Part shown: positions 1-2,336 of the stretch, piece by piece
How positions within the stretch are numbered: the stretch's first letter is position 1
Layout: each line of letters opens with the position of its first letter
NCBI GenBank assembly: GCA_964473825.1
Contig: CAYYQL010000004.1
Span: 32,001-96,000 of the forward strand
Reading direction: 5' to 3'
DNA: 64,000 nt
Origin: an uncultured archaeon
GTDB lineage: Archaea > Asgardarchaeota > Thorarchaeia > Thorarchaeales > Thorarchaeaceae
Program-made: the position numbers and the translations under genes
Notes under the pieces: generated by a model
What the model was told of the DNA's origin: nothing
Seen by the model: the letters and a program-made list of their open reading frames with translations, nothing else
The model's database searches: none

Positions 1-917
1 ACAAAATCCATGACCCGTCTGCCGAATTCCTTATCATCTTTGAATGACCAAGGGATTCTGAGAAACAGTTTTCTCGCTTTGTTTATTGCTTCCTCATCTC
101 TGCTGACATGTGCTCTGAAGACCAGTTTCGCCCACTGGAAGCAAACACTCTCTTGGAAACGGTCTCTGAAGCCGGAATTTGCCGCTGTCTCTGTCAGGTA
201 TGATATTCCCTCCTTTGGTTTACCTAGCATGAGGTCAGCTAGGGCTCCAAGACATGCAAAAGTCACTGCATTTTGGACTACTCCGGAGGCGACGAAAGTG
301 TCGGCACCCTCTTTATACTCCCTTGCTTTCTTGTTGTATAGCTGCCTTCCCTCGACAATAACCAGCTCGTTCTTCATTTCATCTCTCTTTACTCTCTTGA
401 GGGCAGCCCCACCTAGTACGGCCGCCTTCAGTTCCGCCTGCATCACTTGTACATCATCATCTTCAGCTGATTCCCTGGCCTTGGCCACCATCTTTTCTCC
501 CGCCTTTACTAGTTTCTCTCTTAGTGAGGATTCTGATAGGGCCGGGTCTTCGGTGGCAGTCCCTTTTTCGTAGACTGATCGGCCATAGCGGAAGACCTCA
601 TATGCTCTCTCAATCAGACCATTCTTTGTGGCAAGTTCAATGGCACGGATACAGGCAAGGATTGCATTATCTGTTTCTGCTAGGTTCTCGAATTGAGTGG
701 CCGATTCAATGAACCAGAGAATAGCATCTGTGCTGTTATCATCTGCTAGCTCTTTTCCCTTGTATAACGAGCTATAAGCGTCAATGCAGATCAGTGAGCG
801 GTCGAACCTAGTGCACTTGGCTTCCACTTCCGGACGTGGAAGTTCTTGCTTCCTCATCTCACAGTAGTTGCTCGAATCGTCTGACCTCAACCATGAACAT
901 GTTTCTTCTTCTGTCAA
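1..917 (-). CDS. SNAP (Sec17/gamma-SNAP)-like alpha-solenoid protein with N-terminal Cys cluster and internal WH2-like motif; runs off the window start
   Basis: Not in the ORF track. Manual translation from TTG at 917 (GGGAGG RBS upstream) is open for 305 codons to the window edge: MTEEETCSWLRSDDSSNYCEMRKQELPRPEVEAKCTRFDRSLIC...ESATQFENLAETDNAILACIRAIELATKNG...MQAELKAAVLGGAALKRVKRD...ACLGALADLMLGKPKEGISYL...FQESVCFQWAKLVFRAHVSRDEEAINKA. Confidence 0.75.
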   Translation of the reverse strand, partial: MTEEETCSWLRSDDSSNYCEMRKQELPRPEVEAKCTRFDRSLICIDAYSSLYKGKELADDNSTDAILWFIESATQFENLAETDNAILACIRAIELATKNGLIERAYEVFRYGRSVYEKGTATEDPALSESSLREKLVKAGEKMVAKARESAEDDDVQVMQAELKAAVLGGAALKRVKRDEMKNELVIVEGRQLYNKKAREYKEGADTFVASGVVQNAVTFACLGALADLMLGKPKEGISYLTETAANSGFRDRFQESVCFQWAKLVFRAHVSRDEEAINKARKLFLRIPWSFKDDKEFGRRVMDF

Positions 918-1023: not shown

Positions 1024-1440
1024 GTGCCTCGTTCTGAGGGAATACTCCTGAACGATGATGACGAACTCTCGATGATTCGGAGGAGAAAGATGGCTCAGCT
1101 GATGAAGAAGCAGGAGCAGCTGGAGGCCGACAGAGAAAAGAAGGAGAAAGCCTCAGAGCGGCAAGAAGCGATTCTAAAGAGATTCCTTGCCCAAGACGCA
1201 CAAGAATATCTCAAGACCCTAAAAGAATGCGAGCCTGCTGTTGGAGCGCGAGTTCAAGAGATCATTCTGTATCTGATAGTCTATCGCGAAATACGACAGG
1301 TCTTCTCTCAGATTGATGTAAGGTATATTGAACGCCAGATAAAGGGTGAGGAACCAAAGATTCGTGTTCACAGGGACGGGGAGACCTCAGACTTCGGGGA
1401 GTATGTTCGTGATGCAATCAAGAAAGATTCCAACGACTAA
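1024..1440 (+). CDS. PDCD5/TFAR19-family double-stranded DNA-binding protein
   Basis: N-terminal DDDELSMIRRRKMAQL and QEAILKRFLAQDAQEYL, typical of PDCD5/MTH1615; true start may be slightly downstream. Confidence 0.8.
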   Translation: MPRSEGILLNDDDELSMIRRRKMAQLMKKQEQLEADREKKEKASERQEAILKRFLAQDAQEYLKTLKECEPAVGARVQEIILYLIVYREIRQVFSQIDVRYIERQIKGEEPKIRVHRDGETSDFGEYVRDAIKKDSND

Positions 1441-2336
1441 CCGAGTGCCATTGCCCTTTGCTTCCACTCCCTGACTTTGTATTGTAACCCATCAATGTCC
1501 GCCGGTTTGGATTTCCATTTGTTGGCTGTTCGACGCATCTCAAAGATCAATGCTCCTCCTCGAGCAAGTTTCTGTTCTAGGATGTCCACTGCCTTTTCAA
1601 CCGCTTCTGCTATGTTCTCATGCCCCTCGGTCTTGCTTATTATCGTCCCGAGCTCATCAAAGATTTGAACGGGCTCTGCGGTCTTCCACTTGTCCAATGG
1701 AATCGGTGCTACCCGATACTTCTTGCTAGGGATCACCATCTGACCATCTTGGACTTCTATCTCCTCTGCATTCTGTAACTTGTCGATTATGCCCAGGGTC
1801 TCTGACATATCTGCAACTATGACTGCAGCAATCTCTTCGATGCTGATTTTCCTCTTGTTTAGAACGAGGTTGAGGACTTTGTACTTGGGATCTCCAACCT
1901 CCATGACCGTTTCTCTAAGCTTCTCTCTTGCCCCCTCTTCATCATTGAGCAGAGCCATTGCAGCACCGGAGAGCTTCTGAAGATCCTCCGAAAGCATGTC
2001 CGCCTTCCTCTTGGTCGCCTGCAGGCTTTCTTCCAACGTATGATTGCTCTCTGCTGGGCTTTTTTTGGAGTAGCTCTCTTTCTGACTCGATCTTATGTCA
2101 CGCATCTGCTGACCTACGCTATCTAGAGCGTCCTTTGTGCGACTTAGTTCGGACTGCAAGATTCGGATTTCATCGTCCTTTCTCTCAATAGTACGTTCCA
2201 ACTCTTCCACTTGCTGACCAAGAGCATGCGCTCGCTTCTGACTTCCAGAGAGTTGTGCTTGTAGCACCTCAAGCTTCTGATTCAATGATGCAATCTGCAG
2301 TGTCTTCTCTTTTAGTCGGTCATTGGAATCTGACAT
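1437..2336 (-). CDS. Long coiled-coil protein with central winged-helix and C-terminal helical domain
   Basis: 299 aa; heptad-rich N-terminal ~140 aa; PKYKVLNLVLNKRKISIEEIAAVI...IIDKLQNAEEIEVQDG resembles a wHTH. Confidence 0.65.
   Translation of the reverse strand: MSDSNDRLKEKTLQIASLNQKLEVLQAQLSGSQKRAHALGQQVEELERTIERKDDEIRILQSELSRTKDALDSVGQQMRDIRSSQKESYSKKSPAESNHTLEESLQATKRKADMLSEDLQKLSGAAMALLNDEEGAREKLRETVMEVGDPKYKVLNLVLNKRKISIEEIAAVIVADMSETLGIIDKLQNAEEIEVQDGQMVIPSKKYRVAPIPLDKWKTAEPVQIFDELGTIISKTEGHENIAEAVEKAVDILEQKLARGGALIFEMRRTANKWKSKPADIDGLQYKVREWKQRAMALG

Follow-up and report, generated by a model that had tools for sequence, protein, structure and literature searches.

A conserved WH2-like hinge peptide in a Cys4- and TPR-like scaffold protein of Thorarchaeales

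The locus and its gene neighbourhood

A minus-strand gene for a 312-aa protein, referred to below as the scaffold protein, crosses the left edge of the window, by which we mean the whole 64,000-nt stretch of DNA that was analysed. The last 7 codons and the stop codon lie 1–21 nt beyond the edge, and the complete ORF is found on genome contig C4 at L001:1482-2417:- (1479-2417 with the stop). TTG at window position 917, with GGAGGT 6 nt upstream, was chosen as the start because the N-termini of homologues (MSEEETCSWL) match there. The features of the protein are collected in Table 1. As the first-pass annotation had proposed, the minus strand at 390–443 encodes a WH2-like peptide, MQAELKAAVLGGAALKRV, which has charged flanks (ESAEDDDVQV and KRDEMKNE) and is placed between two helical halves in AlphaFold2 (AF2) models.

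Table 1. Features of the scaffold gene and its product (positions in the window; residue numbers refer to the 312-aa protein)
Feature	Position	Strand	Evidence
Gene for Cys4 + TPR-like two-half scaffold protein, 312 aa	1..917	-	ORF, TTG start, GGAGGT ribosome-binding site
N-terminal Cys4 module (C7, C19, C35, C44)	786..917	-	Invariant Cys; AF2 strands and helix
N-terminal TPR-like array, helices 38-59, 64-78, 82-98, 102-121, 132-150	468..806	-	AF2 pLDDT 78-94
Amphipathic helix 153-167, DDDVQVMQAELKAAV, first half of WH2-like motif	417..461	-	AF2 pLDDT ~63
WH2-like motif MQAELKAAVLGGAALKRV, aa 159-176	390..443	-	Conservation; PDB profile matches; sub-threshold Pfam WH2 on orthologues
Predicted disordered hinge, aa 168-189: G170, L173-K-R-V, variable charged spacer with indels	351..416	-	pLDDT 30-39
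Second conserved island ELVIVEGR, at hinge end	345..368	-	2.8-4.3 bits per position
C-terminal helical half, aa 190-312	1..350	-	AF2 pLDDT 84-95; homologues of the C-terminal half only

No Pfam model reaches its cut-off on the scaffold protein or on members of its family, and the Cys4 module has no match in a Pfam search. The four cysteines are spaced C-x11-C-x15-C-x8-C and are invariant throughout the family, even in a 20%-identical homologue from Sifarchaeia. AF2 places strands at 10–12, 17–19 and 24–26 and a helix at 28–35, and the module is probably a zinc-binding knuckle. At the other end of the protein, the C-terminal half finishes in an invariant IPWSFKDDxEFxRR bundle.

The scaffold gene is flanked on one side by a divergent PDCD5-like dsDNA_bind gene (window 1024–1440, +) and on the other by a convergent gene for an RsmB/NOP2-type methyltransferase (L001:140-1489, +), the 3' end of which overlaps the 3' end of the scaffold gene by ~10–17 nt. 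This gene order is kept down to a 35%-identical homologue. Genes for TatD and for a coiled-coil protein are located nearby, and the neighbourhood contains no cytoskeletal gene and no operon structure. Since the scaffold gene is co-oriented with neither of its flanking genes, the neighbourhood gives no clue to function, and the link to the cytoskeleton suggested earlier gains nothing from a context of translation/RNA genes. The coiled-coil neighbour (window 1437–2336, −; 299 aa) has an N-terminal coiled coil, with weak matches to tropomyosin, ADIP and ATG16 of the sort typical for coiled coils, followed by a C-terminal domain without assignment; a 299-aa gene occupies the same place in another Thorarchaeote (L003 4589-5488).

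Distribution of the scaffold family

The scaffold protein has 225 homologues, and every named one comes from Thorarchaeota. Six-frame searching of 400 Asgard genomes recovered the full-length protein, always in one copy, from 73 of the 85 genomes in the host's GTDB family and from the only genome of the sister family, with no full-length match outside Thorarchaeales; the genomes lacking a match are mostly incomplete. Given this single-copy presence in both families, the scaffold gene is a single-copy core gene under selection in one Asgard order. Longer or fused forms were searched for and none was found, which is weak evidence in itself.

Partial counterparts exist in other Asgard groups. The Sifarchaeia homologue (393 aa) retains the four cysteines, both helical halves and the residues MQVE, and its linker is ~100 residues long, acidic, Pro/Thr-rich and devoid of LKK. 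Thus, the design of two halves plus a tether is older than the LKK peptide. Odin/Baldr-type proteins of 166–182 aa (open frames up to 203 aa) match the C-terminal half only. By eye, these short proteins (G009:C60:5835-6332, G397:C20:15573-16181, P0129 and P0130) show a helix-G-x-x-[IL] element, lacking the basic pair, ahead of the C-terminal half, and so the helix-Gly skeleton may likewise predate the LKK peptide.

Structure models and fold

Two AF2 runs, based on alignments of 34 and 122 sequences, gave results that agree: a beta/alpha Cys4 module is followed by five confident helices (38–150), helix 153–167, a hinge and seven confident helices (190–311). Helix 153–167 received a pLDDT of ~63 both times, compared with 86–92 for the preceding helix, and residues 170–189 have pLDDT values of 30–39 in both models. 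The pTM values are only 0.46–0.52, and so the models do not fix how the two halves are placed against each other. As modelled, the fold is a TPR-like alpha-solenoid, consisting of stacked antiparallel helical hairpins. In VIA-align comparisons, in which Z below about 13 is common among helical repeats, dozens of TPR domains superpose on residues ~40–171 (Z 9–12, rmsd 2.5–5 Å), among them three-TPR domains (rmsd 3–5 Å), and the alignments extend to residues 169–172; AF2 thus packs helix 153–167 into the N-terminal array as its final helix. In this arrangement, the hydrophobic face of the motif helix would be buried unless the helix undocks, and a pLDDT of ~63 would suit a loosely docked capping helix as well as one that folds only conditionally. 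The earlier description of the motif as an inserted element therefore does not agree with the models, in which the TPR array includes its helix half. The accompanying expectation that the motif is not buried holds for the LKK half, located in a linker with pLDDT<50, and is less certain for the helix half.

The scaffold protein had also been called SNAP-like, and the top Foldseek matches were indeed Sec17, alpha-SNAP and gamma-SNAP (E 2.6e-3, TM 0.35–0.40). SNAP-type proteins likewise ranked first in VIA-align, with Z of 13.5 and 11.9 and 230 residues aligned at an rmsd of 16; no more than one or two Z units separate them from LGN, Get4, the proteasome lid and numerous TPR proteins. By language-model features the nearest named clusters are SNAP (0.84–0.88, under the 0.9 line), and the Atlas shape search returned the protein's own cluster and then generic TPR clusters. 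Residues 150–190 alone had no usable match among language-model look-alikes, and the full-length family profile, searched against PDB sequences, matched only designed TPR proteins, with E of at least 0.056. Pfam SNAP (PF14938, cut-off 25 bits) does not match the scaffold protein, none of its 12 matches in the whole host genome is at the scaffold gene, and among 34 family members it matched three (E 0.011–0.3); it also gives matches in 11 of 14 control prokaryotes. Like alpha/gamma-SNAP and Sec17, the scaffold protein has ~290–310 aa, is all-helical and in the models appears to combine an N-terminal TPR-like sheet with a C-terminal bundle. However, SNAPs have neither a Cys4 module nor a long disordered hinge, the Foldseek E is only ~3e-3, and a Z of 13.5 falls within the generic helical-repeat range. 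The SNAP resemblance is accordingly weak and unproven, and what the models suggest is a generic TPR-like solenoid.

Other helical-repeat proteins are similar to about the same degree. Get4/TRC35 aligns over the full length (Z 9–11). The N-terminal half superposes on TPR domains made of three repeats and a capping helix (Hop TPR1, 1elw; PP5, 1a17; designed CTPR3, 1na3) with an rmsd of 2.5–5 Å over 85–135 residues, but unlike these domains the scaffold protein stays under every TPR Pfam cut-off and peptide-clamp residues are not evident. The weak Pfam matches among family members (TPR, MIT, Vps35 and SNAP) are all below cut-off. Vps35 was matched in 11 of 34 members, at best with E 3.6e-5 and 22.9 bits (cut-off 35), and these matches were treated as cross-matches between helical repeats.

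A different 286-aa host protein (C11:17448-18077, −) scores above the PF14938 cut-off, with 41.6 bits, or 45.8 with the neighbouring stretch included. If the host has a SNAP-family member, this protein would be the better candidate, with the caveat that PF14938 cross-matches TPR proteins in ordinary prokaryotes.

Conservation of the motif

Conservation was analysed in 122 family sequences with a mean identity of 58%. K164, G170 and L173 are invariant in all 122, and Q160 and E162 are kept in 121. Position 174 is K/R in 120 sequences and position 175 in 117, whereas position 176 is occupied by A (81), T (23) or V (18). L163 and V/I167 of the motif helix are conserved as well, giving the family consensus MQAELKAAVLGGVxLKKAE. 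The conservation in orthologues that the first-pass annotation had called for checking is thus present, and we consider the sequence conservation of the motif to be beyond chance. QAELK...G..LK..E is kept even in a 33%-identical protein of the sister family, and the order's most divergent members still have the motif core, as LQAELKQSLMQGIKLKPAE, LQAELKASIMEGLNLKKVE and LQAELKASIMGGLSLKTVE. Among homologues, the second basic residue of LKK varies (K/R/T/S/P/E).

The motif (159–176) averages 3.6 bits, and its flanks (141–158 and 177–184), which contain indels, have 1.2–2.8 bits and are the least conserved stretches of the protein. Linker positions next to the motif reach only 1.2–2.4 bits, those of the hinge spacer have 1.2–2.0 bits with gaps, and the motif helix is variable over its opening one and a half turns (153–158). 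However, against a whole-protein mean of 3.0 bits the motif window ranks 37th of 295 windows, and since the family alignment is shallow, at 58% mean identity, the conservation contrast is of limited power. Unlike that of the neighbouring helices, the conservation of the motif is uniform and without helical periodicity, which suggests contacts on more than one face.

Resemblance to WH2 motifs

A WH2 motif comprises 17–20 residues, of which the N-terminal helix inserts into the barbed-end cleft of G-actin while the LKKT segment follows the actin surface; three Leu residues are critical (PMC11589041). The scaffold motif resembles WH2 (PF02205) and the second WH2 of N-WASP in its predicted amphipathic helix, Gly stop, two-residue spacer and L-[KR]-[KR]-[VTA]-E. 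The Gly stop, the canonical spacing and L-K-K-[AVT]-E all fit the WH2 definition. The register, claimed earlier to be exact, is gapless against N-WASP KAALLDQIREGAQLKKVEQ and against Pfam positions 10–26, but where WH2 has the second Leu of its 'LL' pair, the scaffold motif has an invariant Lys (K164); M159 could supply the third hydrophobic residue of a WH2-type triad at i-4. The fourth LKKx position is mostly Ala (81/122). WH2 variants are known at this tetrapeptide, namely LRST in WIP (PMC7407642) and LKSV in N-WASP, the latter seen in the PDB match described below. As for accessibility, the LKK half (pLDDT 30–39) lies in a region predicted to be disordered, as in WH2, whereas AF2 packs the helix half into the TPR array. 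This packing differs from WH2, and so do the WH2-model scores, which are below cut-off.

The statistical support for this resemblance was assessed in several ways. The host genome's six-frame ORFs contain a single instance of the pattern L...[VIL]..G..L[KR][KR][VTA]; in residue-shuffled ORFs it occurs 0.5 times on average and at least once in 45% of shuffles, and therefore its bare presence is not beyond chance. In the reverse direction, a 31-column or 22-column motif profile was searched against 177,635 distinct PDB sequences and gave exactly two matches at E<=10, both of them N-WASP WH2 constructs: 2vcp (E 0.17–0.32) and 3m3n (E 6.5e-7 to 5.5e-6), where the E-value is lower only because the construct has three near-identical tandem WH2 copies. 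Against the host's six-frame ORFs the same profile retrieved only the motif itself, with 6 bits for the best non-self match, and missed the LRKV linker of the host gelsolin. The Pfam WH2 model (PF02205, gathering cut-off 23.1 bits) has no match on the scaffold protein at E<=10, none on the excised linkers of four members and, at E<=10, none in the whole host genome; it matched two out of 34 family members, with E of at least 0.079. Membership of WH2, as originally proposed, is thus not borne out by the Pfam model.

Among 400 Asgard genomes, six genomes of one genus have the scaffold motif (ASILSGVSLKKTEEALR) as their best WH2-model match, aligned without gaps to model positions 10–26 with 15.7–17.4 bits (E 0.02–0.06 per genome). 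Sub-threshold false positives of the model reach 16–19.5 bits. One of them, with 19.5 bits, lies inside the DUF460 domain of a 740-aa family (ERDALFGAIRAFNSLK; L007:379-2598, +), another lies inside the GH113 glycosidase domain of a 392-aa protein (L020:1378-2553, +) and scores close to the orthologue motifs, and several junk frames are matched at the same threshold. In total, the model matches 25 of the 400 genomes at E<=0.1, no more than the E-value predicts. Since the orthologue scores fall below both the cut-off and the DUF460 false positive, the WH2 likeness is not statistically significant and is no evidence of homology. As a pattern, the likeness in sequence is nevertheless real, and the WH2 of N-WASP is the closest resemblance.

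Actin and known actin-binding elements

In agreement with the expectation that the host encodes actin and an actin regulator, both genes were found. The actin (379 aa; L002:1474-2613, +; contig C53) scores 437 bits with PF00022 and is 58–61% identical to eukaryotic actins. A two-domain gelsolin (207 aa; PF00626, E 2.8e-25; L002:3133-3756, −) is encoded ~500 bp from the actin gene, and its inter-domain linker is LRKV, which is the gelsolin motif published for Asgard as 'WH2-like'. Asgard actin regulators known from the literature are profilins and gelsolins, and the only WH2-like elements described for Asgard are four-residue linkers inside gelsolins (PMC7444086, PMC9433394, bioRxiv 10.1101/2025.11.30.690169). 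Such LKKT-like linkers of two-domain gelsolins read LRRV in Thor, LKHV in Heim and LVDV in Loki (PMC9433394, PMC7444086), and they contact actin in crystal structures (PMC9433394). Because the host has both actin and a gelsolin with LRKV, and linkers of this kind touch actin, an actin-directed peptide in this organism is plausible by analogy.

The scaffold motif resembles the gelsolin linker in having, in the same organisms, a four-residue L-basic-basic-V/T directly after a helix of a folded domain. In gelsolin, however, the helix of the domain sits in the actin cleft in crystal structures, whereas the scaffold domain is TPR-like and has no known actin affinity. A further likeness, that of an amphipathic helix plus a basic stretch beside a helical-repeat domain, is to formin DAD or WH2-DAD elements (INF2, mDia1; PMC11589041). 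The formin DAD can be an intramolecular latch and in INF2 is also a WH2 (PMC11589041). In contrast to formins, the scaffold protein lacks an FH1/FH2 context, and the models do not dock its peptide on one half or the other.

Three further classes of short motif, a MIT-interacting motif (MIM1), a SUMO-type psi-K-x-E site and a ubiquitin-like LxGG site, were considered by inspection and rejected because of unsuitable spacing or conservation, G169 not being invariant.

Possible functions of the motif

We tentatively favour, with confidence a little short of even, the reading in which the motif is a conserved hinge/docking element of an adaptor specific to Thorarchaeales. This protein would be built, in order, of the Cys4 module, the TPR-like half, a flexible linker and the second helical half. 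The amphipathic helix M159–L168 would cap the N-terminal TPR array, the invariant G170 would terminate this capping helix, and the exposed L173-K-K-[A/V/T]-E would start a ~22-residue disordered tether toward the C-terminal half. The motif might then be a latch that docks back on either solenoid half of the same protein, by analogy with the formin DAD on the armadillo DID; alternatively, it might be a short linear motif recognised by a partner protein. Conservation of nearly all of 159–176, polar positions included, argues for a contact surface rather than a spacer, and the fact that the WH2 model scores the motif no higher than false positives speaks for a hinge/docking role over a WH2. Several points weaken this reading. 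No model puts the LKK peptide on either half and no latch contact is predicted; the neighbours (PDCD5-like, RsmB/NOP2 and TatD) offer no hint of a putative partner; and the low pLDDT of the modelled helix would be equally expected for a WH2 helix that folds upon binding.

The motif might instead be a true WH2-type G-actin binding motif, with L173-K-K-V/A/T lying along the actin face and the TPR scaffold tethered to Thorarchaeal actin, which we consider unlikely but a serious contender. The gapless I/V-x-x-G-x-x-L-K-K-T/V-E register against N-WASP WH2 and Pfam positions 10–26 is consistent with it, as are the retrieval of only N-WASP WH2 constructs from the 177,635 PDB sequences, the genome-best WH2-model match in six genomes of one genus and the disordered, exposed context predicted by AF2. 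The variation of the second basic residue, moreover, mirrors the known variants LKSV and LRST (LRST: PMC7407642). The host supplies an actin ~60% identical to the eukaryotic protein and, adjacent to it, a gelsolin with an LRKV linker, and in Asgard gelsolins such LKKT-like motifs touch actin in crystals (PMC9433394). On the other hand, Pfam WH2 misses the scaffold at E<=10 and finds two of 34 members at E of at least 0.079; orthologue scores of 15.7–17.4 bits, similar to that of GH113, stay under the 23.1-bit cut-off and the 19.5 bits of DUF460; and 25 of 400 genomes at E<=0.1 is the chance level, just as the pattern itself is expected ~0.5 times per proteome by chance. The second of the three crucial Leu residues of WH2 (PMC11589041) is an invariant Lys, the fourth LKKx position is mostly Ala (81/122), the models pack the motif helix into the TPR array, and neither actin-related synteny nor a fused form was found. 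An improbable third explanation is purely structural: helix 153–167 would cap the TPR array, GG..LKK would be a helix stop plus passive tether, and the likeness to WH2 would be a coincidence. The superposition of TPR domains through residue ~171 fits this explanation, and so do the small residues A161, A165, A166, G169 and G170, typical of tight helix packing, the chance-level WH2 similarity and the good conservation of the whole protein (mean 3.0 bits), in which the island ranks only 37th of 295 windows. Yet packing alone hardly explains an invariant L173 and K/R174 in a segment with pLDDT<40 or the near-invariant polar residues Q160, E162 and K164, and the variable helix start (153–158) and an AF2 confidence far below that of neighbouring helices also argue against it.

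The strongest form of the actin hypothesis, in which an order-specific Cys4 plus TPR/SNAP-like scaffold binds the organism's own actin through a bona fide WH2-type hinge motif, is doubtful in our estimation. Were it true, archaea would have a stand-alone WH2-bearing adaptor, and a trafficking-type helical scaffold would have been coupled to actin before eukaryogenesis. If the hinge peptide does bind actin, archaea would have a WH2-type motif carried by a scaffold other than gelsolin, which would give a concrete handle on how Asgard actin is linked to other machinery. Testing would be inexpensive, given that gelsolins of Thorarchaeota have been assayed successfully on rabbit actin. Even without actin binding, this is an uncharacterised, single-copy and nearly universal Thorarchaeales protein of distinctive architecture, and a search for partners would naturally start from its exposed, sharply conserved peptide.

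A second conserved island lies at the end of the hinge, ELVIVEGR in the host protein, with the family consensus DLIISHGR and G190 kept in 121 of 122 sequences. It displays a strand-like alternation of hydrophobic residues, yet its pLDDT is ~36.
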